Assembly (NCBI GenBank): GCA_017883965.1
Contig: JAFNKG010000002.1
Coordinates: 4,528 to 68,527, forward strand
Source of the DNA: Candidatus Methanophagales archaeon
GTDB taxonomy: Archaea; Halobacteriota; Syntropharchaeia; Alkanophagales; Methanospirareceae
Direction: 5' to 3'
DNA length: 64,000 bases
This document shows, piece after piece, positions 6,040 to 48,861 of this stretch (position 1 is its first letter; every line of letters starts with the position of its first letter). The notes beneath the pieces were generated by a model. That model saw only the letters and a program-made list of their open reading frames with translations, made no database searches and was not told the DNA's origin. Made by a program: the position numbers and the translations under genes.

Positions 6040-6084
6040 GTAAAAAAGTTGTTTTCAAAACTTTCCGTTGAACCAAAGATAGAG

Positions 6085-11570: not shown

Positions 11571-11710
11571 TTTTCTTCAACCGCCTTCACCTCCTCCTCC
11601 GTCAGCCTGTACAAATCATAAACCCGCCTGTCGATCTGCCTATCTGTCGCTTCAATCTCTTTTTCAATCCGCTCCTTTTTCCCAACCTCTTCCGGACATT
11701 CCTCCATCAT
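11567..11710 (-). CDS. 47-aa ORF encoding a type IIG RM / N6-MTase C-terminal tail fragment (copy 3)
   Basis: MMEECPEEVGKKERIEKEIEATDRQIDRRVYDLYRLTEEEVKAVEEK*; stop overlaps the cassette 2 start codon (ATGA). Confidence 0.3.
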   Translation of the reverse strand: MMEECPEEVGKKERIEKEIEATDRQIDRRVYDLYRLTEEEVKAVEEK

Positions 11711-13071: not shown

Positions 13072-13646
13072 CTCTCCATTCCTTCGATAACTTTTATTTC
13101 TTCATCGCTCAGCCCATACAAATTATAAACCAACCTGTCAATCTGCGTATCAACAATCTTTATCTGCCGTTCATAAAGCTCTTTATCTCGCTCCATTCTC
13201 GTCTCGTGGTATTTCTTCTGCAATTCGAGCATGTTGTCCACTAAGGGAACGAGTTTATCGTGCTGGGCTTTTTCTTCTGGGTTTGAGGAGTCTATCGTGC
13301 TCAGTTGATATGACGGGCTAACGTCCTCTTTTATGTTCACCGCAGGTTTCTTCGCTTCGACAAAGAACTTCCTTTGACCGCCAATCCTGAAACTGTAATC
13401 CGGTGCTCTGGTCGAACGCCCTACTTTTATTGCATCCTCCAGAACAACCTCCTTGTATTGCTCTGCATAGCCCTGTTTATTGCTCACGTTCCAGCCAAGC
13501 GCTTCAAAGAACGGGTCAATGAATTCTCGTCTTACCTTTGCTTCGTTATATGCCGATTTTTTATAAACGTCAATATTATCACGGAATCGCTCAACGAGTT
13601 CTTCAATCGTTTGTCTTGCTTGTTCTTTCATTTTGGCTTCAAGCAT
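13068..13646 (-). CDS. internally deleted restriction-enzyme remnant: HSDR_N-type PD-ExK nuclease domain fused directly to N6-MTase C-terminal tail
   Basis: 192 aa; EAKVRREFIDPFFEALGW...APDYSFRIGGQRKFFVEAKKP (PD...EAK nuclease motif) then ...QIDRLVYNLYGLSDEEIKVIEG (typical type IIG/BREX MTase tail); ~750 aa of helicase/MTase/TRD expected in between are absent. Confidence 0.6.
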   Translation of the reverse strand: MLEAKMKEQARQTIEELVERFRDNIDVYKKSAYNEAKVRREFIDPFFEALGWNVSNKQGYAEQYKEVVLEDAIKVGRSTRAPDYSFRIGGQRKFFVEAKKPAVNIKEDVSPSYQLSTIDSSNPEEKAQHDKLVPLVDNMLELQKKYHETRMERDKELYERQIKIVDTQIDRLVYNLYGLSDEEIKVIEGMER

Positions 13647-17725: not shown

Positions 17726-20700
17726 TTACATAAAATCGCTCAACGCTTTCTGCTTCTCCGCCACGGCAGGAAAAAGCAAATTCACATCGTGCTCCAGCAA
17801 CTCCAGCCTTTGTCTCGTGTAATCAGATACGTGATACTCTTTCGCTATGCGTAACGAGACATCGAGATATTTTATTATACTTGCCACGTGCACAGTAGGA
17901 ACTATCTTACTGCCGCACTTCTTGCACTTCCCGCTCAGTGGTATCCGCCTGTATTTTGCATTACATTTACTACACCGCATAGTTTGCGAGCCGAATGCAC
18001 GGAGGTTTCCCTTTATATCCTTGAGGAAATGGTTTTTTATGACTGCTTCCGCTACTTCGGACTCGTCCACCGCTCTTATCATCCTTGCCAAACTTAGTTG
18101 CGCATCCAGTTTCTCTACCATTGTACCCAGCGTCTTATACAACGAATTTACAGGACCTGCGGCGATGTCCGTTGTCTCATGCGTATAACCGAACCCATAA
18201 GCATCCTTCGGCTCTCCTATTCTGCTCGAGGCTGTTTCTATCTCCACCTCTTTTGGATTCTTCCCCGAACAGGTTGCTTCATAAAATTCCAGTGGATATT
18301 CCTTTGCAATGGAAACGTTATGCGCCTCTTTGTCCACCTCTTTTGGATTGATGAACGGAATGAGAACAAGAGGAGCGTCCATTTTGCCACCTCTTTTCTC
18401 AGGTAGAAAGGACAGAGAGAAATTGAGCAGTGCATCCAGCAGAAGGATGATTGAATCTTCGTCACCGTCTGCGTTCCTTCTCTTCGCCGCATGGAAAAAC
18501 GGATGCGCATAACAAGCCGATGCCTTCGTGAACCCTATTATCCTGCCCAATATTCCAGCAGAAGTATGCGGTGCGAGTCCAAGCACGAGTTCCCCTACGA
18601 GGTCTTCTTTGCTCGATGCGCTGTAATAAGAGGGTAAGCCATAAAACTTAGAGAGAAGTGAGTCCAAAAATTGCATCACTTTTAGCAAATACGATGCCGC
18701 ATCAACCGATATAATAACATCCTGCTGCTTGAGTTCGACTATTTGCGTGTCGCTATTCAACTCCTCGCCTTTTATGTCATGCGAATACCCCAACTCCTTC
18801 GCTTTTTCCACGCTCAAGCCTATCTCGCTGGGTTTGAAATGCGTTAACGGTAAATTCGTAAAATCATATCTTATCGTGCCGTCCTTAAACACGACTACAC
18901 CGTGCTTCGCCCTCAATATCCCCTTTCCTAAATGCTCAGCCACTTTTTGTTTTGAAATAAGACCTTTCACGCATTTTACGTCTAATTTGTTATTAGCCCT
19001 TACAGGACTTGCATCATGTGACAGAGCCCCATAAGGTTCACCCAATTTTTTCATCGTCTCCTGATAATATTCCCACAAATCAATGCTCTTTTTATCTCTG
19101 GATACTGGTTTGACATGCATCCTGGATCTTGCATCTTGCATCATCCCCAGACTTTGAAAATTAGAAGCGCCGCACTTGTCGCATCTACAAAAGGATGATA
19201 GAAATTCATTACCGCATTCGTTACATCTTCTCATACCTATTTCCACTTCTATCACTTTTTCCTTTAATGCTTCCTTCAACGACCTGTTCTTTCCCCCGTA
19301 TTCGCCCAATGGGAAGATAGAATGAGGAGCGGGCTTCATCCTTCTTTCTTTCGATTTCTCCGGTCTGCCCATCCGAACACCTATTCTTGTCGGCGCTTTG
19401 TCCCTCGTCTTAATCCGCACTGATTCGTCTCTTCTCAAATCCTCGCTTATCCCCAAACACCTTAACAAAGCACTCGGCTCATCTATCGCCAAAAAACCTT
19501 TTTGGTCTCGGGATGCAGGATACTGGATACTGGATACAGGTTTGACTTGCATCTTGCATCTTGCATCTTGCATCTTATCCAGAGTTTGATGCGGGACAAG
19601 CAAATCCTCCAGAATTGTCTTTACAGCATCGTCGTTGGGTATAAATAGCGTTTTTTCTTCTAAAATACCCTTTTCGCATATACACTCCGCCAGATGTTCC
19701 TTATCCTCTTCTGTTATATCCTCCCACAGATAGGTATATGCAGGATGTAACGGCACCGCAAAGCGAGCTGCGAGTTCTATTGCTTCTGCTTGACTCGGTG
19801 TTTTCAAACGCCATTTCTTCGCTTCTTCCTCTGCGCTCGTTTCCAACTCCTTTAACCACCATTCATGCGAGTATGCACCCCGCTTCAATACATGCCCTGT
19901 TTCTAAGAAATCGCCATAATCAATGAGCATCTCTCCTAAATCCACTATCTCTGCCACTTCCTCACTTACCTTACGAACTGCCTCAGCGGAATTTAATCTG
20001 AGGAGGTCACCATTTTTCAATTTCACCGTCGGTCCTTCAATGGAATCAACAGGGACGACACAACCCGCTTTTCCCGGTAGTTCGGGCTTTATCTGCGTTC
20101 CCGCCGCAGTGAATTCAAGCAAAGACATTGTAGCCGGGTTTAATCCGACAGCAGCAAGTCCCGAATTGCGAGCACGTCCATATCGAAGTCTAAAAGAACC
20201 TTTTGACGATGGGCGCCCAAATACAGGTCTCCCGGCTATTAAATCCGCCAGAAAATCCTTCTTTTTTTTCTCGCCCTTCGATTTTACCAACTTGGCTAAC
20301 CATTCCCAGCCCTCGAGTTCAAGTCGGTCAACATGTCGCTTTATCTTCGGTGCCTTCATTGCTATCCCTTCTGTGAGGACGAGTACCATTCCGCCCCTTA
20401 TTTTATCCGTTGCGACCCTTTCGAGGTCTTTATAGCCCCCGACTTCTCTATCTTCCGTAGCGTCGCCATCAATACAGATGGGACAATTTCTCACTATTTC
20501 CTTTATCTCTGCATCGGTAGGCGTGTATTGCAAGCCACTTATTTGCTCATACATCGAAACTTCCAATACATACCTTCCTATTTCCTCTTCGCGCGGATGA
20601 TAAGCCTCAAAGCCCATTCTTCTCCTTATATAATCCGCTGCCAATACAGAGAGCGCCTGAGCGGTTCCCCCTGCACTTCTTATCGGACCTGAATAAAATA

Positions 20701-21106
20701 TTTTTATATACTCGCTACCGTCATCGTTTCTACCCGCTTCAACTCGTGCTATTCCTTCAATAGGTGCTGCAACCACACCCTCGGTGAGAATCGCCACTGC
20801 AGTTCTAACTGCGTTCTCTATAACCTCAACCTTTTTATACCTGCCAAATTTGCCTTCTACGAAGTCATAGCCTATTCGTAACGCTATTTCCTCTCTACCG
20901 GAACCTTCTCGCTCTAATTCGCGTATCCTCGCACTCAAGCCTTTTATGCCAATAAGCGCCTCCACGCGTTCTGCAAGGTCTTTCGTTATGTTTATTTCCG
21001 GAGCGGGTGCGGGGTCAAACCCCGTTTTCCTCGCATCCCTCGCTATTTTCAGCTCCTTCGCTAATCTGTCTTTTAACGTTTTATGGTAGTGTGAAGTCGA
21101 AGACAT
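17726..21106 (-). CDS. DNA polymerase II (PolD) large subunit DP2
   Basis: 1126 aa from ATG at 21106 (MSSTSHYHKTLKDRLAKEL...); conserved GRPEKSKERRMKP, zinc fingers CNECG...CRCDKCG and CSKCNAKY...CKKCGS; ORF-track start at 21229 is over-extended into the neighbouring gene; no intein by length. Confidence 0.85.
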   Translation of the reverse strand: MSSTSHYHKTLKDRLAKELKIARDARKTGFDPAPAPEINITKDLAERVEALIGIKGLSARIRELEREGSGREEIALRIGYDFVEGKFGRYKKVEVIENAVRTAVAILTEGVVAAPIEGIARVEAGRNDDGSEYIKIFYSGPIRSAGGTAQALSVLAADYIRRRMGFEAYHPREEEIGRYVLEVSMYEQISGLQYTPTDAEIKEIVRNCPICIDGDATEDREVGGYKDLERVATDKIRGGMVLVLTEGIAMKAPKIKRHVDRLELEGWEWLAKLVKSKGEKKKKDFLADLIAGRPVFGRPSSKGSFRLRYGRARNSGLAAVGLNPATMSLLEFTAAGTQIKPELPGKAGCVVPVDSIEGPTVKLKNGDLLRLNSAEAVRKVSEEVAEIVDLGEMLIDYGDFLETGHVLKRGAYSHEWWLKELETSAEEEAKKWRLKTPSQAEAIELAARFAVPLHPAYTYLWEDITEEDKEHLAECICEKGILEEKTLFIPNDDAVKTILEDLLVPHQTLDKMQDARCKMQVKPVSSIQYPASRDQKGFLAIDEPSALLRCLGISEDLRRDESVRIKTRDKAPTRIGVRMGRPEKSKERRMKPAPHSIFPLGEYGGKNRSLKEALKEKVIEVEIGMRRCNECGNEFLSSFCRCDKCGASNFQSLGMMQDARSRMHVKPVSRDKKSIDLWEYYQETMKKLGEPYGALSHDASPVRANNKLDVKCVKGLISKQKVAEHLGKGILRAKHGVVVFKDGTIRYDFTNLPLTHFKPSEIGLSVEKAKELGYSHDIKGEELNSDTQIVELKQQDVIISVDAASYLLKVMQFLDSLLSKFYGLPSYYSASSKEDLVGELVLGLAPHTSAGILGRIIGFTKASACYAHPFFHAAKRRNADGDEDSIILLLDALLNFSLSFLPEKRGGKMDAPLVLIPFINPKEVDKEAHNVSIAKEYPLEFYEATCSGKNPKEVEIETASSRIGEPKDAYGFGYTHETTDIAAGPVNSLYKTLGTMVEKLDAQLSLARMIRAVDESEVAEAVIKNHFLKDIKGNLRAFGSQTMRCSKCNAKYRRIPLSGKCKKCGSKIVPTVHVASIIKYLDVSLRIAKEYHVSDYTRQRLELLEHDVNLLFPAVAEKQKALSDFM

Positions 21107-21131
21107 CGTAAGTATGTAATAGCATGTGAAG

Positions 21132-22601
21132 TTATAAGCTTTTCCACGCCTGCATTGTGTGCTTCTTCCCCTGCTCAACCAGCTCCACGTTCTTAAAGAA
21201 CTCTTGGAACAGCTCTGGATGTTCCGCATGAACTGGGTACACCCGATCAGGATTTATCTCTTTAATAATTGCCTTTAGTTCAGCGCCAGAAGCATGTCCC
21301 GAAGCATGAGCAAAATATTCTTTAATTCCAAAATGCTCTAACCAGTTCCTTTTTCTTTCCTCATCTAATTCCATCTCCTCACTGAATGGTTCACAGGACG
21401 ATTTTATCCAGATAGCCGCTTCCGGTTGGATATCTGTAAGTTGATTTATCTCCCAGAGGCTCATGGAGACCACATATTTCTCCGGATTTTTCTGCAATGC
21501 ATTGCAGGTTATTGAATTCGCTCTGCCGATATATTCTCTTTCCCAGGTTGCATAATCCTGCTCGACCAATTTAGAGTCAATTCCTTCCTTGCTAATTAAA
21601 CCCCAGCTCTTCTTCGGGACTAAAATCTTTACGTCACTGAGCGAAAAAGGAGCTAAAGCGCCCAACGCTTCTATAAGGTACGCAAGTTTTAAGGTTACAG
21701 CAAATTCGCGGTTATTTGTTTTCGCAGCTTCAAAAATAGTATTTACTCTATCTAAATCTCTAATTGGATGTTCAACAAAGACTAATCCTTTTGCCCTGTC
21801 GGCAATCAACTGCGTGATTTCTTGCTTTACGCCTGCTTCACTGTCTTGTTGCGTGCTATCAATTCGTGTCCCTTCGGATAATAGCCATTTTGGCTCAGCG
21901 GCTTTCGCTTTCGCAACGAATTTCTTACTTAACGCTTGATTGGAGCCATGAAACCGAATATCACCGGTATAAACTAAATTTCCTTCGTCAGAATAAATAA
22001 TGTAGCCACATGCGCCGGGCAGCGAATGATCCACGGGGACCATTTCAATCTCTAACGAGCCTATTGTAACTTTATCCTCTGGCTCCATCACGTAAAACGT
22101 TCGCTCGTGGACAAAATCTGTGTTTCTCCTCGTTACTCTGCCCAAGGTTCCTTTTTTCGTCTCGTAAAAGGTAAACGCATCGCAGGCGGTAATCAGGTCT
22201 GAAAAAGGGTTACTTCCTGTTTCTTCTACGACCTGGAGAATAATTTTTGTCGCTTTCGTGCAGTAAATCGGGATGTCAGTCCTCAAGAAATGGATATATT
22301 GTGCGTGGTCAGCATGTGCATGTGTAAGAAAAACAGCATCTACGCTACGCTCTTCCTTCGGACGGTTCATGTGCTTGAGGTAATCCTCCCGGTAAATGCC
22401 TTTGATATCTGGCAGAAGTCCTAATTCGAAGAAGTCGGCTAAAGCAGTGCATTTTCGCGGTTGTAAGAACTCTGCAAAGTATGTGTTTGCGATTTTGAAG
22501 CTCATGCCGAAGTCGAGGAAGATTCTTGTGCCTTCTGCTTCTAACAGTATCTTAGTGCCGCCTATTTCGTTTACGCCGCCGTAGAAGGTTAGAGTGGGCA
22601 T
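21132..22601 (-). CDS. MBL-fold beta-CASP ribonuclease (archaeal RNase J-like)
   Basis: 489 aa; GGVNEIGGTKILLE, metallo-beta-lactamase motif FLTHAHADHAQY, beta-CASP region. Confidence 0.6.
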   Translation of the reverse strand: MPTLTFYGGVNEIGGTKILLEAEGTRIFLDFGMSFKIANTYFAEFLQPRKCTALADFFELGLLPDIKGIYREDYLKHMNRPKEERSVDAVFLTHAHADHAQYIHFLRTDIPIYCTKATKIILQVVEETGSNPFSDLITACDAFTFYETKKGTLGRVTRRNTDFVHERTFYVMEPEDKVTIGSLEIEMVPVDHSLPGACGYIIYSDEGNLVYTGDIRFHGSNQALSKKFVAKAKAAEPKWLLSEGTRIDSTQQDSEAGVKQEITQLIADRAKGLVFVEHPIRDLDRVNTIFEAAKTNNREFAVTLKLAYLIEALGALAPFSLSDVKILVPKKSWGLISKEGIDSKLVEQDYATWEREYIGRANSITCNALQKNPEKYVVSMSLWEINQLTDIQPEAAIWIKSSCEPFSEEMELDEERKRNWLEHFGIKEYFAHASGHASGAELKAIIKEINPDRVYPVHAEHPELFQEFFKNVELVEQGKKHTMQAWKSL

Positions 22602-29159: not shown

Positions 29160-29987
29160 ATGAAAAAAATATACGGTATTATCGGCGACCCAATAGCACA
29201 CAGCCTTTCTCCAGTTATGCATAATGCCGTTTTTGAGAAACTCGGCCTGGATGCGATTTATCTTGCGTTTAGAGTCTCAAAGGATGAGCTTGGAGATGCG
29301 ATAAGAGGGGCGAAAAGCCTCGGCATTTCAGGTCTTAGCGTTACCATACCGCTGAAGGAAAAAGCGCTCTCTTTCGTGGATGCTGAAGAAGTAGCGAAGA
29401 AAATAGGTGCAATAAATACCATTGATTTCAGCAGTGGCACGCCCGTTGCCTATAATACCGATGGGATAGGTTCGTTGAGAGTATTGAAAGAGACAGTGAG
29501 CGAAATAAAAGGTAAAAAGGTGTTAATTCTCGGTGCTGGTGGTGCTGCAAAAGCTATTTCCTTTTATCTCGATGCTGAAGGTGCAAGGGTGACAATAGCA
29601 AACAGGACGAAAGAAAGAGCCGCTCTGTTGGCTTCTAATCTCCGTAATGCGAATTCTATTGGCTTAGATACCGATACGCTCACAAAGAGGATTGAAGATT
29701 CGGATATTTTGATAAATGCAACTTCCGTGGGTATGCATCCACACGAGGATGCTACTTTAGTTAATGCTGATATGATGCATCCCGACCTTGTTGTATTCGA
29801 TGTCGTGTATAACCCGATGGAGACGAAATTGCTGAAAGAAGCGAAGCGTGCGGGCGTAAAAAAGATAGTGGATGGTGTGAAGATGCTCGTCTACCAGGGT
29901 GCCGCTTCGTTCAGGATATGGACAAAGGAGGAGCCGCCGATAGATGTGATGGAGAAGGCGGTTAGGGATGTTTTGATTCAGGATTAA
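29160..29987 (+). CDS. aroE: shikimate dehydrogenase
   Basis: 275 aa from MKKIYGIIGDPIAHSLSPVMHNAVF; SVTIPLKE, NTDGIG, GAGGAAKA NADP-binding motifs. Confidence 0.85.
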   Translation: MKKIYGIIGDPIAHSLSPVMHNAVFEKLGLDAIYLAFRVSKDELGDAIRGAKSLGISGLSVTIPLKEKALSFVDAEEVAKKIGAINTIDFSSGTPVAYNTDGIGSLRVLKETVSEIKGKKVLILGAGGAAKAISFYLDAEGARVTIANRTKERAALLASNLRNANSIGLDTDTLTKRIEDSDILINATSVGMHPHEDATLVNADMMHPDLVVFDVVYNPMETKLLKEAKRAGVKKIVDGVKMLVYQGAASFRIWTKEEPPIDVMEKAVRDVLIQD

Positions 29988-32272
29988 TCTTTACCCGAAT
30001 AAAGACAAAAAGAGGCAATCAGCGCATCCAGTTGAATTCGCTCATTTGCTCCCTCGGTAATTCTGTAATCCGCTTCTCCAATTCTGTCCATCAATTCCAC
30101 TTTCTTATTCGCCGGAATATCCATGTTTATCACGAGCCGATGCATCTGCGCCAATATTTCGTCCCCTGATATACCTTTATCCATCAACTCCCCCAATTTA
30201 TCCAGCGCTTCAAAGAATTTACCGTCCAATGCCTCTTTTATCAACTCTTCTATCTCCTCAGGTCTTGCAGTTGCCGTTATCTCGTATATCATCTCAGGTT
30301 TTATTTCATTGCTCAGCACCGCAGCACTTTGCAATGCATTTACTGCTCTTCGCATATCACCCACCGAAACATAGTTTATTGCCGCGACAGCATCTTCAGA
30401 CAACTTCACGCCCTCCATATCCGCTATATAATTTATACGAGACGCGATTGCATCATAAGAAAGCGATTTGAACCTGTACACGGAACATCGGGATTGGATG
30501 GGCTCTATTATCTTATATGAATAATTGCAACTGAGAATAAATCTGCACGTCCCCGAATATCGCTCCATCGTTCTTCTCAGTGCTGACTGCGCGGCATCTG
30601 TCAAAGCATCTGCCTCGTCGAGGAAAATGATTTTGAAGGCGGCATCGCCAATGGGCATGGTTCTTGCGAAGTTCTTTATGTTGTTACGGACCACTTCTAT
30701 GCCCCGTTCATCACTGTTGTGTAAAAGTATAGGTGCTGTCCCACCCCAGAACATTTCAGTCCCCGGAACAGCGACATCATAGACAAAGTCATTATATTCT
30801 TTTATCTCTATATTCTTCACCAAAACCACGGAAAGAGGTGAGTCTAACAACTTTTTCAGCTTCTTTAGCTCTTCTTCAGAGTTCGCCTCTTTTATCTTGC
30901 TGAGAATTCCCTTCACGATGCCCTTTGATATTCTCTTGCTTTTCTTGGAATAGAGCTGATGCCGCAAGGTGTACCTCCACCTCAAATTTATTTTCTTGCT
31001 TACCCTGTCTAAAAGACAAATTACAGTCCCTGCGGGCAAAAACTCTGACTTTATATATGAATAAGATGGTAGTTTCCAGGCAACCCTTGCTTCTTCTTCA
31101 AAACATGAAGTATTTAAGCCAGAAATCTTGCCCAGCCAAGTAACATCAATTAGATTCTCCTTTGACCGGGAAGAATACCTTAAAAATTCACCCCACTCCC
31201 CCATTCCGTCATTCATATATCCCTTCAGAAGTTCTAATCTATAAGGAAGGGCGGAGTTGTAGATAAAAGAAGGCGTCCTTTTTGTAGTAGCATTGTGCTT
31301 ATAGCCATCGTAAAAATTGTCCCTGACGAATTTAGCCAATTGAGTATTAAAAGTTCGTAGTTGAATCGAACTTCCTTTATTTCGATTAAATCCTGAATAT
31401 CCTATCTTCAAACCGCTCTTTAAACCAAATTTTTCGTCTAATATCTCTTGCGCTCTTTCCACTGCTTCCATCTCTTGCGAATACCCAAATACAAATACTA
31501 AACCACCGCTGGTATTTCCTCTGAAGCTTAAACACCCTTCAGCCAAGTAAGCACCGAAGAGCCAAGCCAAATCTTCATCTATATTCACATCCTTTAAGAT
31601 ATTCCCGACTTTAGGATTTCTAACCAGGACACCTTTCAAATCAATGTATAATTGTGGTTTATATCTTCCTATCTCCAATAATTTGTCCCCGTTTTCTATA
31701 ACAGTAGTAAATGTAATTAACAAATCGCTTTCCTTCAATTTGGAGACCTCTTTTGAAATTAAATTTCCCTCTTTATCCATAACTATTACAGAATGATTTA
31801 AACTGGTCTTCACCTCGCCGCCTTCATATCTTATTTCCGCTATTTTTTCCACTTTATGCCTGGAGATCAAACTTACTGGCGTGAATTTTACTTGATAATC
31901 CTTATCCACGGAAAGAACCTCTAAATCCGACAACTTTGCATATCTCTCATCTCCTTTGAAGCTTTTTTTTGCTAATTCACCAAAATTTATTCGCTTTATC
32001 TCCCCTTTCTCTCTAATTAGAATGGGTGTTTCAGGGGTTACACTCGCATTAAGTTCGGTAAAGTTCTCCGCCCAGGTATCACCATAGAGTTCCCTCGCCA
32101 TAGCGACAGCCGCGGCTGTTTTACCTACACCCGCAGGTCCGGAAAAGATGAGATGCGGTAAGTTTCTCCGCCTGACATAAGACTGGAGATTATTTATTAT
32201 GGCGTTCTGTCCTGCTACCTCTTCCAGTTTCCTCGGTCTGTATTTCTCAGTCCATATCTCCTCTCTCTGCAT
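29984..32272 (-). CDS. rfcS: replication factor C small subunit, intein-containing
   Basis: 762 aa; exteins (76 + 243 aa) give canonical RFC-S: EKYRPRKLEEV, Walker A GPAGVGKT, FTELNA|SDERGIEVVR split by insertion, DEAD box FLDEAD, SRC motif. Confidence 0.9.
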   Translation of the reverse strand: MQREEIWTEKYRPRKLEEVAGQNAIINNLQSYVRRRNLPHLIFSGPAGVGKTAAAVAMARELYGDTWAENFTELNASVTPETPILIREKGEIKRINFGELAKKSFKGDERYAKLSDLEVLSVDKDYQVKFTPVSLISRHKVEKIAEIRYEGGEVKTSLNHSVIVMDKEGNLISKEVSKLKESDLLITFTTVIENGDKLLEIGRYKPQLYIDLKGVLVRNPKVGNILKDVNIDEDLAWLFGAYLAEGCLSFRGNTSGGLVFVFGYSQEMEAVERAQEILDEKFGLKSGLKIGYSGFNRNKGSSIQLRTFNTQLAKFVRDNFYDGYKHNATTKRTPSFIYNSALPYRLELLKGYMNDGMGEWGEFLRYSSRSKENLIDVTWLGKISGLNTSCFEEEARVAWKLPSYSYIKSEFLPAGTVICLLDRVSKKINLRWRYTLRHQLYSKKSKRISKGIVKGILSKIKEANSEEELKKLKKLLDSPLSVVLVKNIEIKEYNDFVYDVAVPGTEMFWGGTAPILLHNSDERGIEVVRNNIKNFARTMPIGDAAFKIIFLDEADALTDAAQSALRRTMERYSGTCRFILSCNYSYKIIEPIQSRCSVYRFKSLSYDAIASRINYIADMEGVKLSEDAVAAINYVSVGDMRRAVNALQSAAVLSNEIKPEMIYEITATARPEEIEELIKEALDGKFFEALDKLGELMDKGISGDEILAQMHRLVINMDIPANKKVELMDRIGEADYRITEGANERIQLDALIASFCLYSGKD
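30716..32044 (-). mobile_element. intein (443 aa) with LAGLIDADG homing-endonuclease domain in rfcS
   Basis: Begins SVTPETPILIREKGE after ELNA, ends ...ILLHN followed by +1 Ser of SDERG; contains LAWLFGAYLAEGCL. Confidence 0.8.
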
Positions 32273-32968: not shown

Positions 32969-33042
32969 GCCTCGGTAGCTTAGCCTGGATGAGCGGCTGA
33001 TTTGTAATCAGCAGGTCGAGGGTTCAAATCCCTCCCGGGGCT
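32969..33042 (+). tRNA. tRNA-Thr (anticodon UGU)
   Basis: Canonical cloverleaf: acceptor GCCTCGG/CCGGGGC, D-arm GCTT-AGCCTGGAT-GAGC, anticodon arm GCTGA-TTTGTAA-TCAGC, T-arm GAGGG-TTCAAAT-CCCTC; 74 nt, CCA not encoded. Confidence 0.85.
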
Positions 33043-33072: not shown

Positions 33073-34464
33073 TCATCTACTCGGATGAATTTTCTTATTC
33101 GTTCCCTCCATACGCATACGTATCACTGGTTTTGATATATGCCTTCTCGCAACCGGTGGGACTTCGTATAAGCCTTCTTCCATACCTCTATCAACAATCA
33201 CCACATCCTTATCCGCACGATAAGTCCCGCAGTGTTTACACCGGTATCCCTGCAATCTTCCCGCTGATTTCATAGTCCTCCCGCACTTATCACATTTTGG
33301 ATTCCTCTCCACCGCATTATTCAATTTCCTTATCTCTACCTTCTCGAGATTTATTGTCTTTTTCTTCAGTGACCCGAACACCGTAATTTCATCACCAACC
33401 CGTAACTCCCTTATAATATCACGAAATCCCTTCGTCGGCTCGTAAGCAATGCACTCGATACTTTTTTCCGCTGGCTTTCTGGATAGCGCGATGGAGAATA
33501 GGACATGCCCTCCTTCTATCGTCCGGGGATTGGAGCAGACCACGCCGTCCAGGACATATGAGTGGTAGTCTTGCAGCTTTTCCTTTGCATCACCAAACTT
33601 TGTGGGGCTCTGCCCCACGACCCCGCAAGCCCTGTAAGGGCTTATCAAGTGAAAATCCGTGCCTTGATTCGTTACGAACAGCATTTTCCGCTCCACCGGC
33701 TCTGCATGTATGAGTTCGTAAGCTTTGTATATAGCATCTATGCTGTCGCCTCGTATCCCAAAGAGGACTGGGCAGGGAGAGTGAGGTGCAAAAACTATAT
33801 TATTGTTCGCTACATCTACCGTATCCCAGACTAAGGGATAAGTAGCTTCATCTGATTCCCACACACTCGCTTCCTCTATAAACCTTGACTTCCCCCAGCT
33901 TTCTTTTCGCCTGTATGCCATCAGCTCGTAAGTGAAATCGTAATAATTAGGATTATTTTTTTGTAACGCTAAAAACGAAACAGCAGCTAAAGCGCCTATT
34001 ATCCCGCGTTTATTCTTCAATCCAAAGTAATCGAAGTGCAATTCGGAAATGATTGCATAAGCATTTTCTATCTTCAGCACTTCTCTCACTGCATTCTCGT
34101 AAAAGTTCTTTAACATGCTCTCGCTCTGCTCTTCTCGCTCTTTTCCACTAATCGCATTTAAGGCGTTATCATCAATAAAAACAACTCCGGGATTTGTTTC
34201 CTCTTCTCTTAACTCCGATAGCTCACTTACTCGCGCTTTGACCACTTCTTTCACTTTTTCCTCTTTCCCGTTGGCTATCCTTATCTCAAAAGATACTGCT
34301 CCGTTGCCTCTTGTTTTAAATGGTATGCAGGGATTCAGTCTCACCAACCTCGGAGTCGAAACTTCTCCATATCCTCGTTTCTTGAGCTCGTCAACTAAAA
34401 CTGCACATAGATATGTGGTGCACAACCCTTTCCTCGAATCTGTATCGTCTATTCCGATGATCAT
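33073..34464 (-). CDS. tiaS: tRNA(Ile2) 2-agmatinylcytidine synthetase TiaS, with in-frame palindromic-repeat insertion
   Basis: 463 aa; N-terminal MIIGIDDTDSRKGLCTTYL, C-terminal OB and zinc ribbon (CDKCGRTMKSAG...CKHCG); residues ...LISPYRACGVVGQSPTKF encoded by element E copy (33597-33645). Confidence 0.75.
   Translation of the reverse strand: MIIGIDDTDSRKGLCTTYLCAVLVDELKKRGYGEVSTPRLVRLNPCIPFKTRGNGAVSFEIRIANGKEEKVKEVVKARVSELSELREEETNPGVVFIDDNALNAISGKEREEQSESMLKNFYENAVREVLKIENAYAIISELHFDYFGLKNKRGIIGALAAVSFLALQKNNPNYYDFTYELMAYRRKESWGKSRFIEEASVWESDEATYPLVWDTVDVANNNIVFAPHSPCPVLFGIRGDSIDAIYKAYELIHAEPVERKMLFVTNQGTDFHLISPYRACGVVGQSPTKFGDAKEKLQDYHSYVLDGVVCSNPRTIEGGHVLFSIALSRKPAEKSIECIAYEPTKGFRDIIRELRVGDEITVFGSLKKKTINLEKVEIRKLNNAVERNPKCDKCGRTMKSAGRLQGYRCKHCGTYRADKDVVIVDRGMEEGLYEVPPVARRHISKPVIRMRMEGTNKKIHPSR
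33597..33645 (-). repeat. palindromic repeat element E, intragenic in-frame copy within tiaS
   Basis: Reverse complement taagcccttacagggcttgcggggtcgtggggcagagccccacaaag = 45/47 match to 5993-6039. Confidence 0.65.
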
Positions 34465-36200: not shown

Positions 36201-36288
36201 GTACTTGTTTACCACTGAGCCCGCAGAGAACACAGAGAGTTAGAAAAACCATTTATCTCATCTCAGCGCTCTCCGTGATCTCGGCGGT
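36201..36288 (-). repeat. ~100-bp intergenic repeat family, copy C (inverted)
   Basis: Reverse complement ccgccgagatcacggagagcgctgagatgagataaatggtttttctaactctctgtgttctctgcgggctcagtggtaaacaagta matches 1858-1956 and 45160-45266. Confidence 0.6.
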
Positions 36289-36343
36289 AATAAACCATCA
36301 AAAGTTCCGTATTGAAATTTAAGATTTAGAGGTTGGGATTTAT

Positions 36344-37009: not shown

Positions 37010-37065
37010 CTTCCCCTTCGGAAATAAATTTGAAGCGCATATACTTAAACTTTTACTGTAATGTG

Positions 37066-37109
37066 ATTGCTCAATATCTTGTGGTAGAAATTAGGATTTA
37101 GGATTTTCC
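37066..37109 (-). repeat. fragment related to MITE-like element at 48586-48815 (AAATCCT repeats joined to cacaagatattgagcaat)
   Basis: Reverse complement ggaaaatcctaaatcctaatttctaccacaagatattgagcaat matches the left-TIR and right-flank sequences of the 48.6-kb element. Confidence 0.5.
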
Positions 37110-37574
37110 ACCTCTTATTGAGCATGTACCTTCCTTCTCCCTTTTCTTCTTCTCCAGCGCCAATTCGTATATAGCACGTGTCAGTGCACGGCACTGAGTT
37201 GAAGGGTTCCCTCTCTTCGTGATGTATCGCTCCGCGCCCTTCTTTAAAGCTTCTTTTGCTACTTCTGCTCCACCCTTACCAGTGAAGATGATAAAGGGCA
37301 CATCCGCATATTTGTCTCCTTTTCTCACCGCGTCCAAAAGTTCTATTCCATCCATCCCCGGCATCTTGTAATCAGAAACAACGACATCGAACTCCTCTGT
37401 TTCAAGTTTTTCCAGTGCTTCCTCTGCCGAAAGCACGCTGACAATATCAAAATCGCCTTTCACTACCCTTTTCACGAATACTCTCGTTATCGCCAGCTGC
37501 GCCGGCTCGTCATCCACATGCAAAACTCGTATCGGCCTCGAGTCTATATGCTTGGGCTGAAAATCATTTATCAT
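37098..37574 (-). CDS. response regulator (CheY-like receiver domain)
   Basis: 158 aa; LHVDDEP, DYKMPGMDG, FIIFTGKG receiver signature. Confidence 0.75.
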   Translation of the reverse strand: MINDFQPKHIDSRPIRVLHVDDEPAQLAITRVFVKRVVKGDFDIVSVLSAEEALEKLETEEFDVVVSDYKMPGMDGIELLDAVRKGDKYADVPFIIFTGKGGAEVAKEALKKGAERYITKRGNPSTQCRALTRAIYELALEKKKREKEGTCSIRGGKS

Positions 37575-37664: not shown

Positions 37665-39545
37665 CTAAATAAGCACCGCCACCTCTTTACTACTCATCAC
37701 ATTTACTTCCCGCTCCAACTGATGCAACTCAACCTCACTCAATGTTAGCGCATCGAATGGAATTATCAAGCGACACTTGCTTGTCGTGACGAGGTCTGTC
37801 ACCGATTCGACGAACCGAAGAACAACCTCAAATCCGTTCTGGTCAATGAGATATTCTAAACCTTCCAGCATGATTACGCTCTCAACTTCATTTTCCACAA
37901 ATTCTTTTACTGCTATGCTCAACTGTGTTATATTTGTTGGAACAATGCATTTTTCTTCCTGGATATGTGTTAGCCAGATTATCGGGACATCCACATCCTT
38001 TATATTGTATTCCTCGTGAATGTGCGATGGATGAATCCTTGAAATGAGCAGCCCTTTAAACTCGTATTCAATCAGTTTGCCGAACAATTTGAAACTCGTA
38101 TCAGGTTTTTCCTCAGTGATTAAATAGCATTTTCCTTGCTTGAATAATCTATGCAACGCAGGTAGCTCAAGTTTTTTTACTCTTTTTTCCGCACGTTCAC
38201 GCTCGCGGATTTCTCGTTTCAGTCCTTCGTTTGCTTTTAACAGTTCGGCGGTGCGTTCCTTTACTCGAAGTTCCAGTTCGTCATGTGCTTTTCGCAGCGC
38301 CTCCTCCGCTCGCTTACGCTCAGTGATGTCGCGGGCGAAAATAGCCAGCCGTTCTACCTTTCCTTGCGCATCAAAGACCGGATAAACACAGTGATCAAGA
38401 ACCATTCCTTCATGCTCGTCCTCGAAGCAAACAGACTCACCTGAACGAATGACCTCATCAACTCGTGCCTTTCTGGATTCTGCCAGAGCAGGTGAGAGAA
38501 AGTCATAAATAAACGTGCCGATAAGTTCATCTGCACTCCTGCCAAGTCTCTTTGCCGCTACTTCGTTTGTGGCAAGAATGCTCCCCTCGTCTGTTATTAG
38601 CATCGCCGATTCTGTGGGGGCGTTCAGCAGTGCCCGTGCCGTCTCCTCACTTTCCCGCAGCGACTCCTCCACCCGCTTCCGCTCCTCTTCCTGCTCTATA
38701 TTGCGCATGGCGAATGCGATGTCGTCAGCTACCTCACGAAACAGCAATTGCTCATCAGCAGCAGTTGCCATCTCGACAGGGGTGGAAACGGATAGGATGC
38801 CCTGGACACGAGCACCTTGTTCCATGCGAACTGCCATGCACGCCCTGCCGATGCAAGTTTCCGCTAACGGGCAATCGGCACAGGTATCAGCGACGTCCTC
38901 GACTATCACGATGTCGGATTGCTTAAGTGCATTCTGCCCGCACCGGGTGAACTCGCCTCGCTTCATCTTCTCGACGACGGTGGAGAAACTCTTCCCATGT
39001 CCCGCCCCGGCAGCGGTTAAGAATCCATTGTTTTCGTCCACGAGGGCAATCCACGCGCTGTAGTATCCTCTGGTCTCGATGAGCGTCTCGCATACACCCT
39101 GAATCATACGGTCCCTGTCCTTCTCTATCGCCATGAGTTGGTTGACGTCTCGTATAGCGCGCAGGACGGCATTGAGATGGGTAGTCCTCGCCTCCGCCGC
39201 CGCAATCCGCTCACTTAACGCAGCAACTACAAAGGCAATAACGATAAACATAATAGCCCGGAGATAATCATTAAGATTCATCACCGCTTCTCTAATAAAA
39301 ATGTGGCTGCAAATCAGCATTGCCGCTAAAAATATTGCCACCACCAAACCTTTTCTTTTCCACCAAAGACATGCTAAAATAATCGGAGTATAGAAGAAGT
39401 GTGTAAAAACCCTGCCGGTTCCAAGCACCGCATGAAAATAATACGTGAGAAGGCAAGCGACAACTAAAAGGATAGCCATTACCGCAATATTGTATTTTTC
39501 TTCTAGTCCCTCAAATTTTATTCCCTTGATGTTGCCCCCCCACAT
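37665..39545 (-). CDS. membrane sensor protein: N-terminal TM sensor domain + GAF + PAS + C-terminal DUF835
   Basis: 626 aa; N-terminal TM block shared with HK at 43043; GAF and PAS-like segments; C-terminal ...YLITEEKPDTSFKLF...PIIWLTH...MLEGLEYLIDQNGFEVVLRFVESVTDLV matches DUF835; no HisKA/HATPase. Confidence 0.6.
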   Translation of the reverse strand: MWGGNIKGIKFEGLEEKYNIAVMAILLVVACLLTYYFHAVLGTGRVFTHFFYTPIILACLWWKRKGLVVAIFLAAMLICSHIFIREAVMNLNDYLRAIMFIVIAFVVAALSERIAAAEARTTHLNAVLRAIRDVNQLMAIEKDRDRMIQGVCETLIETRGYYSAWIALVDENNGFLTAAGAGHGKSFSTVVEKMKRGEFTRCGQNALKQSDIVIVEDVADTCADCPLAETCIGRACMAVRMEQGARVQGILSVSTPVEMATAADEQLLFREVADDIAFAMRNIEQEEERKRVEESLRESEETARALLNAPTESAMLITDEGSILATNEVAAKRLGRSADELIGTFIYDFLSPALAESRKARVDEVIRSGESVCFEDEHEGMVLDHCVYPVFDAQGKVERLAIFARDITERKRAEEALRKAHDELELRVKERTAELLKANEGLKREIRERERAEKRVKKLELPALHRLFKQGKCYLITEEKPDTSFKLFGKLIEYEFKGLLISRIHPSHIHEEYNIKDVDVPIIWLTHIQEEKCIVPTNITQLSIAVKEFVENEVESVIMLEGLEYLIDQNGFEVVLRFVESVTDLVTTSKCRLIIPFDALTLSEVELHQLEREVNVMSSKEVAVLI

Positions 39546-43042: not shown

Positions 43043-44122
43043 ATGGTTGAATCAAATGAAAAATATAAAATTCTGGTAATGGCTATCTTTTTAGCTGGCG
43101 CTTGCTATCTCACTTATTATTTTCACGTGGTAGTTGAAACCGACACTGTTTTTACTCACTTCTTTTATATTCCTATTATCTTAGCATCAATGTGGTGGAG
43201 AAGAAAAGGTTTAGCGGTGGCAATATTTTTAGCGGTATTCCTGATTTTCAGCCACTTTTTTATCAGACCGAATGTGGAGACTATTAATGATTTGATTCGC
43301 GCTCCCATGTTTATAGCTGTTGCCCTGGTGACTGCTATTTTGAGTGAGAGGATTGCGAAGGTGGAGGAACTAAAAGCAAAAGAGACGCAGCTTATTCATG
43401 CCGGGAGACTCTCTTCTCTTGGAGAGATGGCTACTGCAATAGCTCATGAGATAAACCAGCCTTTGTCCGTAATCTCCATGGCTGCGGAAAGCACGTTACG
43501 GGATGTAGAGAAAAAACGAGTTGATGTGAGTGCGCTTCCAAAAGACTTAGAAGATATAATGAGGAACGTAAAGCGAATTGACCGGATTATCACACACATG
43601 CGAACTTTTGCGAGGAAAACAGAGGAAAAGCGAGTAGTAAAGCCTGAAGAAGTGCTGAATAATGCTTTTAGCTTACTTGATGAGCAGTTCCGAGTGCACG
43701 GCATTTCGGTTTCTCGTAAAATAGAGGAAAATTTGCCTCTCATCGAGGTAGACCCAAATCAACTGGAGCAGGTATTTATAAACATCCTGACGAATGCGAG
43801 GCAGGTATTGGATGAGCGAGGCGAAGAAGCAAAAAGAGAAGGCAAGAGTTTTCAAAAACAATTAGGATGCAATATCTCAAGACAGAACAATAAGATAGTA
43901 TTTGAATTTGCAGACAATGCTTATGGCGTGCCGGATGAGCTAAAAACAAGAGTATTCGAGCCTTTCTTCACTACAAAAGAATCAAGTGAAGGCACTGGTT
44001 TAGGCCTTTCTATTGCATACGGCATTGTAACTCGTTCGCTGGGTGGGAAGATATGGATAGAAGATAATGCAGCAGGAGGAGCGAGTTTTATGGTGGCGCT
44101 GACGATAGGGAATAGAAAATAG
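43043..44122 (+). CDS. sensor histidine kinase
   Basis: 359 aa; N-terminal TM sensor domain paralogous to 37665-39545; HisKA H-box IAHEINQPL; HATPase_c N, G1 (FEFADNAYGVPDE), G2 (GTGLGLSIA) boxes. Confidence 0.8.
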   Translation: MVESNEKYKILVMAIFLAGACYLTYYFHVVVETDTVFTHFFYIPIILASMWWRRKGLAVAIFLAVFLIFSHFFIRPNVETINDLIRAPMFIAVALVTAILSERIAKVEELKAKETQLIHAGRLSSLGEMATAIAHEINQPLSVISMAAESTLRDVEKKRVDVSALPKDLEDIMRNVKRIDRIITHMRTFARKTEEKRVVKPEEVLNNAFSLLDEQFRVHGISVSRKIEENLPLIEVDPNQLEQVFINILTNARQVLDERGEEAKREGKSFQKQLGCNISRQNNKIVFEFADNAYGVPDELKTRVFEPFFTTKESSEGTGLGLSIAYGIVTRSLGGKIWIEDNAAGGASFMVALTIGNRK

Positions 44123-45128: not shown

Positions 45129-45159
45129 AGAACATCGAAATGTTTTTTATTTGTTCACC

Positions 45160-45266
45160 GCCGAGATCGAGGAGAGCGCTGAGATGACGAAAAAAGAGGG
45201 ACTCAACAGGATAATTGATTTTTCTGACTCTCTGTGTTCTCTGGGTGCTCAGCGGTAAACAAGTAT
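45160..45266 (+). repeat. ~100-bp intergenic repeat family, copy B (with ~25-bp internal insertion)
   Basis: ccgccgagatcgaggagagcgctgagatgacgaaaaaagagggactcaacaggataattgatttttctgactctctgtgttctctgggtgctcagcggtaaacaagta. Confidence 0.6.
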
Positions 45267-47244: not shown

Positions 47245-48585
47245 ATGGAAGAAGAAGAGAAAGAGAAGATAATAGAAACAGCGGTATGTCCCTTCTGCGC
47301 CTGTCTATGCGATGATGTGGTTATTTCCGTAGATGTAGAGGGAAACAAAATAAAAGAGGTAAGAAACGCATGCAAGTTCGGTGTGAAAAAGTTCCTTTCG
47401 CCACAAAATGCGGGGAGGTTAAGAAAGCCGAGAGTAAATGGAGAAGCGACGGATTACGAACATGCATTAGGAAAGGCGGTGGAGATACTAAGAAAAGCGA
47501 ATAAGCCGCTTGTCTATGGGCTGAGCAATAGCGGATACAACGCTCAGCATGTCGCGCTGGAAATAGCAAAGCACAAGAAGGGCGTATATGACGTCACGGA
47601 ATCTATTTGCCATAATCTTCTGTATCCAGAGTTGCGAAAAGGTAAAAACCCGTTTTACTATGCTCTGCTGGATGAGATAAGGGACAACGCCAACACCATC
47701 ATTTACTGGGGCTCTAATCCCGTTGAATCGCATCCAAGACATCTTTCCAGGTTCGCGGTATATCCGGTTGGAAGATATGCAATGAGAGGAGTGCTGGATA
47801 GGGAAATGATTACTATTGACGTGGTTGATAGCGAATTGAAGAAACTATCGAGGTGGTTCTTGCGGGTGAACGCCGGCACGGGAGGAGGAGATGTTAAAAT
47901 AGCAGAGATTATGACGCGGTTGGTAAAAGGAGAGACGAACGGGTTAGGAGAACTTGTAGAGGACTCAGTAGACTTTGATGCCGTAAGAAAAATAGCAGAC
48001 AGGTTGAAGAAAGCGTTTTACGGTGTTATTTTCGTTGGTCTTGGTGTTTTTTCAAGCGAAAACGCATCGAAAAAAGTAGAAGCTATTTTGGCTCTCGTTG
48101 ATGCGCTCAACAAAGAGGGTGTGAAATTCGTGCTGTTTCCTATGAAGGGGCATTTCAATGTGGTCGGTGCGGTGCAGCTTTTGTTACGAGAGACCGGGTA
48201 TCCTTATGGCGTGGATTTTTCTCGTGACAAAATCTTCATGCCGGGTAAGACAACGGTTCTGGACGTGATAGAGCAAGGAGAGGTGGATGCGGCGTTAATC
48301 GTAGGTGCAGACCCTTTTTCGTCGTTTCCTCGCGATAAAGCGAGAAAATTGTGCAATATGCCTGTAATCTTAATAGACCCATTTGAGAGTCCAACTACGC
48401 AGTTCGCCTCTGTTGCGATTCCTACTGCGATTACGGGTGTCGAAACGGACGCGATAGCATACCGGATGGATGGTCTTCCTTTGAAGCTTGATAAAATTGT
48501 GGATTGCGGGTATCCTTCGGATATGGAGATTTTGGAGAGGATTTATGAGGGGTTGGTTTTTTCGAATATGCTCAATAAAGAGTGA
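47245..48585 (+). CDS. formylmethanofuran dehydrogenase subunit B paralog (molybdopterin oxidoreductase family)
   Basis: 446 aa; N-terminal CPFCACLCDD Fe-S motif; collinear similarity with FwdB at 27305-28603. Confidence 0.8.
   Translation: MEEEEKEKIIETAVCPFCACLCDDVVISVDVEGNKIKEVRNACKFGVKKFLSPQNAGRLRKPRVNGEATDYEHALGKAVEILRKANKPLVYGLSNSGYNAQHVALEIAKHKKGVYDVTESICHNLLYPELRKGKNPFYYALLDEIRDNANTIIYWGSNPVESHPRHLSRFAVYPVGRYAMRGVLDREMITIDVVDSELKKLSRWFLRVNAGTGGGDVKIAEIMTRLVKGETNGLGELVEDSVDFDAVRKIADRLKKAFYGVIFVGLGVFSSENASKKVEAILALVDALNKEGVKFVLFPMKGHFNVVGAVQLLLRETGYPYGVDFSRDKIFMPGKTTVLDVIEQGEVDAALIVGADPFSSFPRDKARKLCNMPVILIDPFESPTTQFASVAIPTAITGVETDAIAYRMDGLPLKLDKIVDCGYPSDMEILERIYEGLVFSNMLNKE
48470..48556 (+). 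repeat. 87-bp direct repeat, copy 1 (native 3' end of fwdB paralog)
   Basis: atggtcttcctttgaagcttgataaaattgtggattgcg.gtatccttcggata.gga.attttggagaggatttatgaggggtt repeated at 49385-49470 with 4 mismatches. Confidence 0.7.
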
Positions 48586-48795
48586 AAAATCCTAAATACT
48601 AATTTCTAAACTCTAAACAATTTCAAAATTCGAAATCCAAATACCAAAACAAACTTTTTTGCTTCGCAAAAACCTTTACTAAAAATAATAGTTTCTTTGG
48701 TAAAGCTTTCTTTTCTAAAGAAAGGTTTGTTTTGAATTTGTAATTTTTGTCATTGGGATTTGTTTAGGATTTCGGATTTCGTATTTAGGATTTCG
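48586..48795. mobile_element. MITE-like element with ~60-bp imperfect terminal inverted repeats built from AAATCCT/AGGATTT units
   Basis: Left end aaatcctaaatactaatttctaaactc...cgaaatccaaatacc; right end gggatttgtttaggatttcggatttcgtatttaggatttcg; internal palindromes and T-runs; non-coding. Confidence 0.5.
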
Positions 48796-48861
48796 TCCAC
48801 AAGATATTGAGCAATTACGTTTTTTCGTAGCTCTTAGAAATCAGAAAACAGTACAGTCTGG

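Follow-up and report, generated by a model that had tools for sequence, protein, structure and literature searches.

The window, by which is meant the whole 64,000-nucleotide stretch of DNA from a Candidatus Methanophagales archaeon that was analysed, carries on its minus strand the gene tiaS, which holds in frame a short palindromic element, here termed E. The TCKD, FLD and zinc-ribbon Pfam domains all match in the encoded protein, which aligns over its full length with the solved TiaS of Archaeoglobus fulgidus; its score against NCBIfam NF040849 (411 bits), below the curated equivalog cut-off of 600, marks it as a divergent TiaS. By the names of its closest TiaS homologues, the organism belongs to ANME-1 (anaerobic methanotrophic archaea, group 1; Methanophagales). 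The host gene and the parts of its insert are the following.

33073–34464, minus strand: tiaS, host gene, 463 aa
33602–33643, minus strand: full consensus copy of E, encoding SPYRACGVVGQSPT, residues 275–288 of TiaS
33627–33643, minus strand: hairpin 1 of E, AAGCCCT-TAC-AGGGCTT
33602–33618, minus strand: hairpin 2 of E, GTGGGGC-AGA-GCCCCAC

Element E proper is 42 nt long (AAGCCCTTACAGGGCTTGCGGGGTCGTGGGGCAGAGCCCCAC) and is bordered in tiaS by T33644 and A33601. The initial annotation had described it as a 47-bp element with two hairpins, of which the hairpins stand and the length does not. The 47-nt string was recovered in a search of the window at 33598–33644 (minus strand, no mismatches) and at 5993–6039 (plus strand, two mismatches), with zero matches among 100 dinucleotide shuffles, which confirms that the repeat in tiaS and its near-identical intergenic copy are real; the repeat finder pairs the two sites as a 47-nt inverted repeat of 96% complementarity. 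Folded as RNA, the tiaS copy gives two hairpins independent of each other (−28.2 kcal/mol, z = −3.1 versus shuffles), and the opposite strand likewise folds better than shuffles (z = −3.6). The two hairpins are unlike each other and both GC-rich, the G+C content of E being 69% as against 41.5% for the window. Hairpin 1 falls into subfamilies with compensatory changes (AAGCCC/GGGCTT versus AAACCC/GGGTTT), and the stem of hairpin 2 varies among GTGGGGC/GCCCCAC, GCGGGC/GCCCGC, CACGGGC/GCCCGTG and ACGGGGC/GCCCCGT, all still complementary; judged by these compensatory variants, the hairpins appear to be under constraint.

Aligned copies define a sharply bounded unit, AAGCCCTTACAGGGCTTGC GGGGTCGTGGGGC(A/G)GAGCCCCAC, which measures exactly 42 nt in 102 of the 103 copies among the matches listed. 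Similarity ends exactly at the 42-nt borders in all copies. At 47 unique sites the flanking bases are T at −1 in 43 and A at +1 in 44, with 1.5 bits of information at −1 (T) and at most 0.3 bits at each of positions −2 to −5; these sites show no flank signal beyond the T and the A. E is inserted in either orientation, both between genes and within them. It lacks terminal inverted repeats, its ends AAGCCC... and ...CCCCAC not being complementary, and no target-site duplication is present in the empty and filled pairs of tiaS and argC, where the net gain is 42 nt between T and A. E is a fixed unit of 42 nt, or 14 codons, at TA, with neither inverted ends nor duplication.

The reading frame of TiaS passes through E as ...HLI-SPYRACGVVGQSPT-KF..., as first proposed, and the insert comprises 14 residues rather than the 16 originally counted. 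In an alignment of 29 orthologues these residues directly follow the invariant TNQGTDxHL motif. The FLD domain (Pfam) ends at residue 272 and the insert lies right behind it, in the linker before the next folded segment; among orthologues this post-FLD stretch is variable in length and sequence. A. fulgidus TiaS lacks the insert, whose position corresponds there to the junction of ...TDMHLI with GEEEV. The placement was made by PDB sequence alignment and Pfam domain borders; an AlphaFold2 model of the window TiaS (29-sequence alignment), with predicted local distance difference test scores below 50 at residues 178–295, is uninformative on the insert. The protein is 43 aa longer than that of A. 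fulgidus (463 versus 420), in keeping with the excess of about 40 aa first noticed, of which E accounts for only 14.

Among the 120 best ANME-1 orthologue clusters of TiaS, the insert is found in 4 and missing in 116. P0001 (the window) and P0005 have it in pristine form, P0011 with a single change and P0015 in a decayed state; the four clusters belong to four different clades, each with insert-free sisters. At the DNA level, the closest relatives have empty sites reading ...TTG ATA/AAG TTA... (L005) and ATA/AGG CTA (L006), the slash marking the insertion point, and filled alleles are exactly 42 bases longer than empty ones. The ortholog alignment proposed as a check accordingly places the 14 residues as lineage-specific. 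The insert had been described as tolerated or exapted; the former fits better and would make E a tolerated passenger, whereas exaptation is unlikely, since the decayed P0015 copy shows no protein-level constraint on the insert.

Sister alleles preserve traces of E. P0012, the sister of the filled P0005, keeps ATA CGA CCT TAC A, followed by a 48-nt deletion, a remnant that documents loss of E in tiaS. In P0019 (96% identity to the decayed P0015) the site is ATA AGA AAG, the same as a filled site from which the 39-nt core has been taken out, and P0016, the sister of P0011, reads HLTTFE, as though a shifted 42-nt deletion had spared the last codon of E. For several empty alleles an HLI-R 'footprint' (ATA AGR) was also considered; it is possible, but a simple K-to-R change explains them equally well. 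Between filled alleles, the tiaS copy of the window is identical to that of L001 at 42 of 42 positions and to that of L002 at 41 of 42, and the four-fold degenerate sites of the same tiaS genes are 67% identical (divergence at these sites, d4, 0.44; 0.36–0.44 for the filled alleles). Under neutral descent the probability of such identity is ~5e-8 for L001 and ~1e-6 for L002.

A second, independent insertion of E occurs in the TiaS of P0035 / L056 (archaeon Yes46-13), in another variable loop after NPGVVFIDD..., where it encodes KALTGLAGSWGRAPQ; the frame used is the one that would ordinarily begin with TAA, the flanking base here being A instead of T. The same loop holds an unrelated insert of ~28 residues (..NNNRTQMIADNQDLKYKKVGE..) in the TiaS of P0061, P0066, P0076 and P0079.

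Beyond tiaS, E is a dispersed family. One genome per species was scanned for the exact 23-nt core of hairpin 2, which is present at at least 114 loci, in archaeal metagenome-assembled genomes (MAGs) of ANME-1 type among the matches listed, and 885 kb of fetched DNA yielded 107 full copies. Collection by an exact core inflates the apparent conservation of copies outside tiaS; the tiaS comparison is free of this bias because its alleles were found through protein. All genomes are MAGs, which makes the copy numbers minimum values and their taxon labels unreliable.

Many of these copies lie inside genes. Open frames extend for at least 40 codons on both sides of E in 47 of the 107 copies, for at least 60 in 37 and for at least 100 in 26. 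A Pfam domain spans the insert in GuaA (GATase), ArgC, Ogt fused to Mut7-C, MetRS, UMP kinase (pyrH), a LeuA/homocitrate-synthase-like enzyme, prephenate dehydratase (pheA), a pyridoxal-phosphate (PLP) enzyme and GyrA, and further hosts recognised by eye are a VWA/Mg-chelatase subunit, an AsnB–Dph6 fusion, an NFACT protein and PssA. Removal of the 42 nt from ogt restores the canonical NPYPIIIPCHRVV, and two 91%-identical argC orthologues carry E at different sites, each being empty at the site occupied in the other.

Four of the six frames of E are free of stop codons, giving the peptides SPYRACGVVGQSPT and KPLQGLRGRGAEPH in the forward direction and CGA(P/L)PHDPASPVRA and WGSAPRPRKPCKGL in reverse; a fifth frame is used only where the flanking T, which would give TAA, is replaced. 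With a length that is a multiple of three and four stop-free frames, two thirds of genic hits would merely add 14 residues. Among the 26 copies with at least 100 open codons on each side, none lies in a stop-containing frame, one third being expected (P = 2.6e-5). This frame bias probably reflects purifying selection acting on an insert that is translated, and the absence of stop-containing frames from genic copies suggests that E is transcribed and translated with its host.

A Mur-ligase-like gene at L083:431–833 (archaeon Yes46-13) and in L054 contains two copies of E in two frames (DKPLQGLRGRGAEPHT and ISPYRACGVVGQSPTV) and has no Pfam match at 1e-5. Spread of E across orders, as implied by the labels Methanosarcinales, Syntrophoarchaeum, 'Nitrosotalea' and 'Desulfobacteria', was considered and rejected, the labels that were checked having proved unreliable: the ArgC labelled 'Methanosarcinales' and a Methanophagales ArgC share 91% identity over aligned positions, and the 'Nitrosotalea' locus L054 shares 93% nucleotide identity with L083 of Yes46-13. 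The labels of several E-bearing MAGs (L011–L114 DYFG01..., L036, L096 and others) conflict with their genes, those checked being 91–93% identical to ANME-1, and mis-binning or mis-labelling is likely. At L047:51–125 and L015:4709–4783 a group II intron (Rfam RF00029, 56 bits) borders directly on hairpin 2 with its 3′ end (...ctactctacc/GTGGGGC..., with the slash at the junction). This direct contact indicates that the intron, for which E may be a homing site, is inserted within E, after GCGGGGTC; the contigs break off inside it. Hairpins found alone have arisen by deletion, belong to tandem hairpin arrays, or are halves of E split by the group II intron.

Three further copies of E lie in the window, two of them associated with another palindromic repeat, termed F, next to small genes of the toxin–antitoxin type, and one in the gene for the large subunit of DNA polymerase II.

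5994–6035, plus strand: second full copy of E, two mismatches, one of which breaks a pair of hairpin 1; nested in the loop of repeat F
4994–5012, plus strand: half copy of E, hairpin 1 only, hairpin 2 deleted; within another copy of repeat F
18993–19033, plus strand: decayed copy of E in polD, 34 of 44 positions kept and one codon deleted (nhmmer E = 1.7e-4)
4965–4993, plus strand: left arm of repeat F, copy 1, AGAGAATGTTTTTAGTCA(A/C)GGTTTTTAC
5964–5992, plus strand: left arm of repeat F, copy 2, giving codons (EFSHGFY) at the end of the DUF5615 open reading frame (ORF)
6036–6060, plus strand: right arm of repeat F, AAAGGTAAAAAAGTTGTT..., pairing with the left arm around E
5369–5608: DUF433 gene, Pfam-confirmed
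5651–5995: DUF5615 gene, Pfam-confirmed
17726–21229, minus strand: polD, encoding the large subunit of DNA polymerase II (1167 aa) and holding the decayed copy

The initial annotation knew three copies of E; all three are present, and the list lacked the decayed one at 18993–19033, which was detected with a profile built from members of the E family. The copy reported as truncated at 4994–5016 is indeed truncated and ends at 5012, hairpin 1 alone matching again at 4994–5011. The reported overlap of the intergenic copy with the stop of DUF5615 holds: the T flanking E and the first two bases of E form the TAA at 5993–5995, and the ORF runs into F plus E, which gives its last seven codons and the stop. 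At many other loci with unrelated neighbours repeat F is seen, either intact with the loop CGAAG or holding E in the loop; many intergenic copies of E sit within the loops of further palindromic repeats that are dispersed, and hairpin-2-like modules are also present as tandem arrays. Overall, this mosaic of E and other repeats can be likened to bacterial interspersed mosaic elements (BIMEs). A preference of E for hairpin loops as targets, suggested by its nesting in F and two other repeats, was rejected (P = 0.13 after de-duplication). In polD, the decayed copy is in frame and encodes ...YGALSHDASPVRAN..., with one codon lost relative to the canonical reverse-frame peptide CGA(L/P)PHDPASPVRA, and close ANME-1 PolD orthologues or fragments are ~10 residues shorter at this site.

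The same polD gene holds a different in-frame repeat, a 60-nt unit present at 19098–19157 and 19530–19589 (87% identical) that encodes ...MQDAR(C/S)(K/R)M(Q/H)VKPVS... twice. One unit forms a 24-residue insertion missing from the 78%-identical orthologue P0127, the second takes the place of part of the zinc-finger region, and no further match to the unit was found among the other loci examined.

E is quite probably selfish and non-autonomous, an ultra-short repeat of two hairpins that belongs to archaea of the ANME-1 (Methanophagales) type. It sits at TA as a unit fixed at 14 codons, in either orientation and in genes or spacers alike, and in tiaS it lengthens the protein by SPYRACGVVGQSPT in the variable post-FLD stretch. 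Copies age, as the older, decaying one in polD shows, and go by deletion, leaving the remnants seen in sister alleles. Its movement would be in trans, by a hairpin-recognising enzyme; an architecture with a hairpin at each end and neither inverted ends nor duplication recalls the HUH transposons (IS200/IS605; REP/RAYT, that is, repetitive extragenic palindromes (REPs) and REP-associated tyrosine transposases (RAYTs); and IS91/Helitron-like elements), and as a low-confidence guess the enzyme may be a single-strand HUH-type transposase. Resident copies may be corrected against other genomic copies, or else E may enter the same permissive TA again.

Among known systems, E is neither a REP nor a MITE (miniature inverted-repeat transposable element); it works like a Rickettsia palindromic element (RPE) or a mitochondrial double-hairpin element (DHE). 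RPEs (Ogata et al. 2000, as summarised in PMC10969869) are palindromic repeats inserted in frame in many unrelated genes. The likeness extends to a multi-copy, palindromic, non-coding repeat that occurs between genes and in frame within unrelated, often essential genes and is read as an extra peptide (for E, as judged by frame statistics) without a known transposase (PMC10969869). RPEs differ in measuring ~100–150 bp and being confined to an obligate intracellular bacterium, whereas E has 42 nt and belongs to free-living, uncultured archaea; E further differs in its two unlike hairpins, its TA site without duplication, and its near-identical copies, better conserved than the host gene. Set against RPEs by description rather than by consensus sequence, E shares the in-frame insertion into many unrelated genes with read-through, and in size and sequence family it stands apart as a 42-nt archaeal unit. 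The repetitive hairpin-forming elements (RHEs) of mitochondria are GC-rich and occasionally enter rRNA and protein genes (PMC2800124). Mitochondrial G+C clusters, DHEs and RHEs resemble E as GC-rich (double) hairpins of ~30–80 nt that are dispersed in an AT-rich genome and nest in repeats; they are organellar, whereas E is archaeal. The GC clusters of yeast go to a TAG-type target, which is duplicated.

The 'REP-like' description given initially amounts to a resemblance only. REPs are stem-loops that seldom overlap coding regions (PMC12306157) and bear a GTAG or CGTC tag at one hairpin end (PMC3733652). Like REPs, BIMEs and REPINs (REP doublets forming hairpins), E is a short, GC-rich, high-copy stem-loop that forms mosaics and has stem-keeping subfamilies (PMC12306157, PMC3733652, PMC3116915, PMC2817692), and its many copies are highly similar. 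REPs are extragenic, tagged, usually in inverted pairs and RAYT-linked; E has none of the first three properties, and no RAYT was found near its copies. Between 26 and 37 of the 107 copies sit inside long ORFs, the two hairpins are unlike, and GTAG and CGTC are absent from both strands of the 44-nt E consensus. The defining features of MITEs, terminal inverted repeats and target-site duplications (PMC10969869), are both lacking in E, which shares with classical MITEs its small size, non-autonomy and multiple copies. Miniature elements derived from IS200/IS605 and E both lack terminal inverted repeats and duplication and have a hairpin at each end. Those of the PATE type (palindrome-associated transposable elements) insert 3′ of a conserved 4–5-nt target and have two hairpins that are alike; E shows no such 4–5-nt target, only the T at −1 and the A at +1, its hairpins differ, and no cognate TnpA or TnpB was seen. 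In the literature, no report was found of such in-frame elements in archaea, of the sequence or peptides of E, or of comparable ANME-1 repeats; coverage was incomplete, and this is absence of evidence only.

Several observations weigh against the picture of a selfish repeat moved in trans. The tiaS copies are far better conserved than the host gene, and a passive passenger would not behave so; with 89 TA dinucleotides in tiaS and TA as the sole target signal, repeated hits on one site demand strong selective filtering. No empty allele with the window-type flanks GTDFHLIKFxDAKE was found in JGI metagenomes, nor any population-level polymorphism. No partner enzyme was identified: the frequent families among 95 ORFs near the copies are housekeeping ones and two ORFs match DDE_Tnp_1, with no mobilisation family, Y1 and RAYT included, among the most frequent ones within 400 nt of E, a search that did not take in whole genomes. 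No arrangement of hairpin 1, gene and hairpin 2 occurs in the 885 kb of loci, the genomes not having been searched exhaustively; the core of E is absent from IMG/VR viral contigs, and nothing supports viral carriage. Translation, finally, is read from frame statistics and not from peptides.

For the pattern in tiaS, repeated hits on a permissive TA, copy-correction and selection on the hairpins are the options, the first two being given similar weight. In one version, plausible though short of probable, a single ancient insertion at this TA in an ANME-1 ancestor was inherited vertically and followed by many precise or imprecise losses, the surviving copies being held alike by gene conversion from other copies of E or by selection on the hairpins. 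What is left of E, or may be its footprint, in the sisters of filled alleles (P0012, P0019 and P0016) favours it, as does the P0015 copy, whose decay makes it old, and four independent hits on one site appear unlikely where TA is the only signal and tiaS offers so many. It requires, however, a correction process acting on a 42-nt tract, which failed in P0015 despite a fresh E there (L004:12947–12990), and it sits uneasily with the clean empty sites of the nearest relatives (d4 = 0.12–0.14).

A different version, itself to be held tentatively, has independent, recent insertions in several lineages at the same permissive post-FLD TA, with turnover by deletion between them. It draws on the spread of filled alleles over four separate clades and on the pristine state of E in three of them despite a d4 of 0.36–0.44. 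The nearest relative, CSMAG_1265, is empty at the tiaS site yet has at least 12 copies of E elsewhere in its genome; the gains in argC are recent and reciprocal, and TiaS, GuaA and ArgC each have two different occupied sites. Against it, the copies are not brand new, since the ancestors of P0005/P0012 and of P0011/P0016 were apparently filled already, and in P0011 the codon adjoining E has two substitutions; nor is there a target signal past TA.

A stronger proposal, rather doubtful as a whole, is that E is currently active and suited to coding sequence, with its 14 codons, four stop-free frames and need for TA only, and that a hairpin-recognising enzyme of ANME-1 both inserts it and keeps its copies identical, by re-insertion or copy-correction. 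If true, this would be an archaeal partnership of the REPIN/RAYT kind acting inside essential genes and repeatedly remodelling protein linkers.

It is unlikely that E is not selfish and acts instead as a functional structured DNA or RNA signal (protein-binding, processing, pausing or terminator-like) kept by selection everywhere. The near-identity of the copies, the compensatory stem changes, a conservation in tiaS that exceeds neutral expectation and the intergenic copy that terminates an ORF would all suit such a signal. They have to be set against copies in both orientations and at arbitrary positions of unrelated housekeeping genes, copies nested in other repeats, and half and decayed ones; presence and absence also vary between 91–93%-identical orthologues, and an Rfam search of the window returned tRNAs only, with no family at E.

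Highly improbable, too, is removal or skipping of E at the RNA level, whether through the tRNA splicing endonuclease, which would cut it out as a bulge-helix-bulge intron, or through ribosomal bypassing; host proteins would then be unaffected. The ribosome bypasses the byp elements of yeast mitochondria in this way, whereas E is apparently translated. Insertions just before IPCHRVV (Ogt), YGVQFHPE (GuaA) and HCHND (LeuA-like), where 14 residues look risky, would be explained. Flanks alike only in T and A allow no general exon–intron helix, however, the ends of E are not complementary, its length is a multiple of three, and the avoidance of stop-containing frames (0 of 26) would be needless for an element that is skipped or excised; both routes were rejected on the diversity of the flanks and the frame statistics.

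Equally improbable is the proposal that the F-plus-E repeats are attC-like recombination sites or duplication scars, with the DUF433/DUF5615 pair as a mobile cassette. The pair is bracketed by a direct repeat, which was given initially as 42 bp exactly 1 kb apart and in fact comprises 48 nt, 90% identical, at 4965–5012 and 5964–6011 with a spacing of 999 nt, and the region from 2.5 to 6 kb is rich in small toxin–antitoxin-type genes (PIN, AF2212-like, HicB-like, DUF433 and DUF5615). The repeat consists of the left arm of F followed by E, a composite that recurs at many loci and in many genomes away from such genes; its upstream copy has lost hairpin 2, and an extra, unrelated 69-aa ORF lies between the repeats. 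E also occurs within housekeeping genes and other repeats, in contrast to the attC sites of integrons, which are imperfect palindromes closing the 3′ end of every promoterless gene cassette in arrays beside an integrase, and no integrase is present among the annotated neighbours in 2.5–7.5 kb. The F-plus-E pair is repeat clutter in intergenic spacers, and the cassette duplication or mobility once suggested is not supported.

Capture of the intergenic copies from the tiaS coding sequence, which has shared sequence and nothing more in its favour, can be dismissed, as A. fulgidus TiaS and 116 of the 120 orthologue clusters lack homologous residues, similarity ends at the 42-nt borders in every copy and E occurs at well over 100 unrelated places; the initial view that E was inserted into tiaS is upheld.

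Other features of the window were observed alongside E. The DUF5615 gene seems to be frameshifted: an ATG at 5605, sharing bases with the DUF433 stop (ATGA), opens a frame that encodes MKILVDENIPLTTVR... before a stop, and the Pfam match, starting from profile position 18, goes on in another frame from 5651, as in a pseudogene or an assembly error. Another dispersed repeat family (~100 nt; ...CACAGAGAG... and ...CTCAGCGCTCTCCGTGATCTCGGCGGTAA...) is represented at 1870–1939, 36202–36309 and 45136–45265, with copies at seven other loci, and further small repeats lie at 37060–37125 and 48568–48821. A 310-nt inverted repeat (39191–39500 and 43058–43367, 77% complementary) flanks 3.6 kb, and the direct repeats at 10592–10723, 11594–11644 and 13101–13232 resemble paralogous gene ends. 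A partial tRNA match at 9441–9496 (minus strand; model positions 8–63 of 71, 35 bits) is possibly a fragment of the sort left by integrating elements, and a complete tRNA at 32969–33042 lies directly downstream of tiaS. The gene for the small subunit of replication factor C (29984–32272, minus strand; 762 aa) carries an intein, as indicated by an Intein_splicing match on the same gene in L124 and a faint LAGLIDADG_3 match on the L002 orthologue; the orthologues beside tiaS in L005 and L006, of 326 and 319 aa, are without one.

Palindromic selfish DNA that settles in frame in protein-coding genes is a well-known peculiarity of Rickettsia and some mitochondria. If the present reading is confirmed, uncultured methane-oxidising archaea would harbour a very small element that repeatedly edits the essential enzymes TiaS, PolD, MetRS, GyrA, GuaA and ArgC. 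E may add to assembly breaks, contig ends falling within the group II intron inserted in it, and its presence or absence would, on the same condition, provide strain-level markers. The element would also account for length differences and common 14-residue motifs among unrelated ANME-1 proteins.

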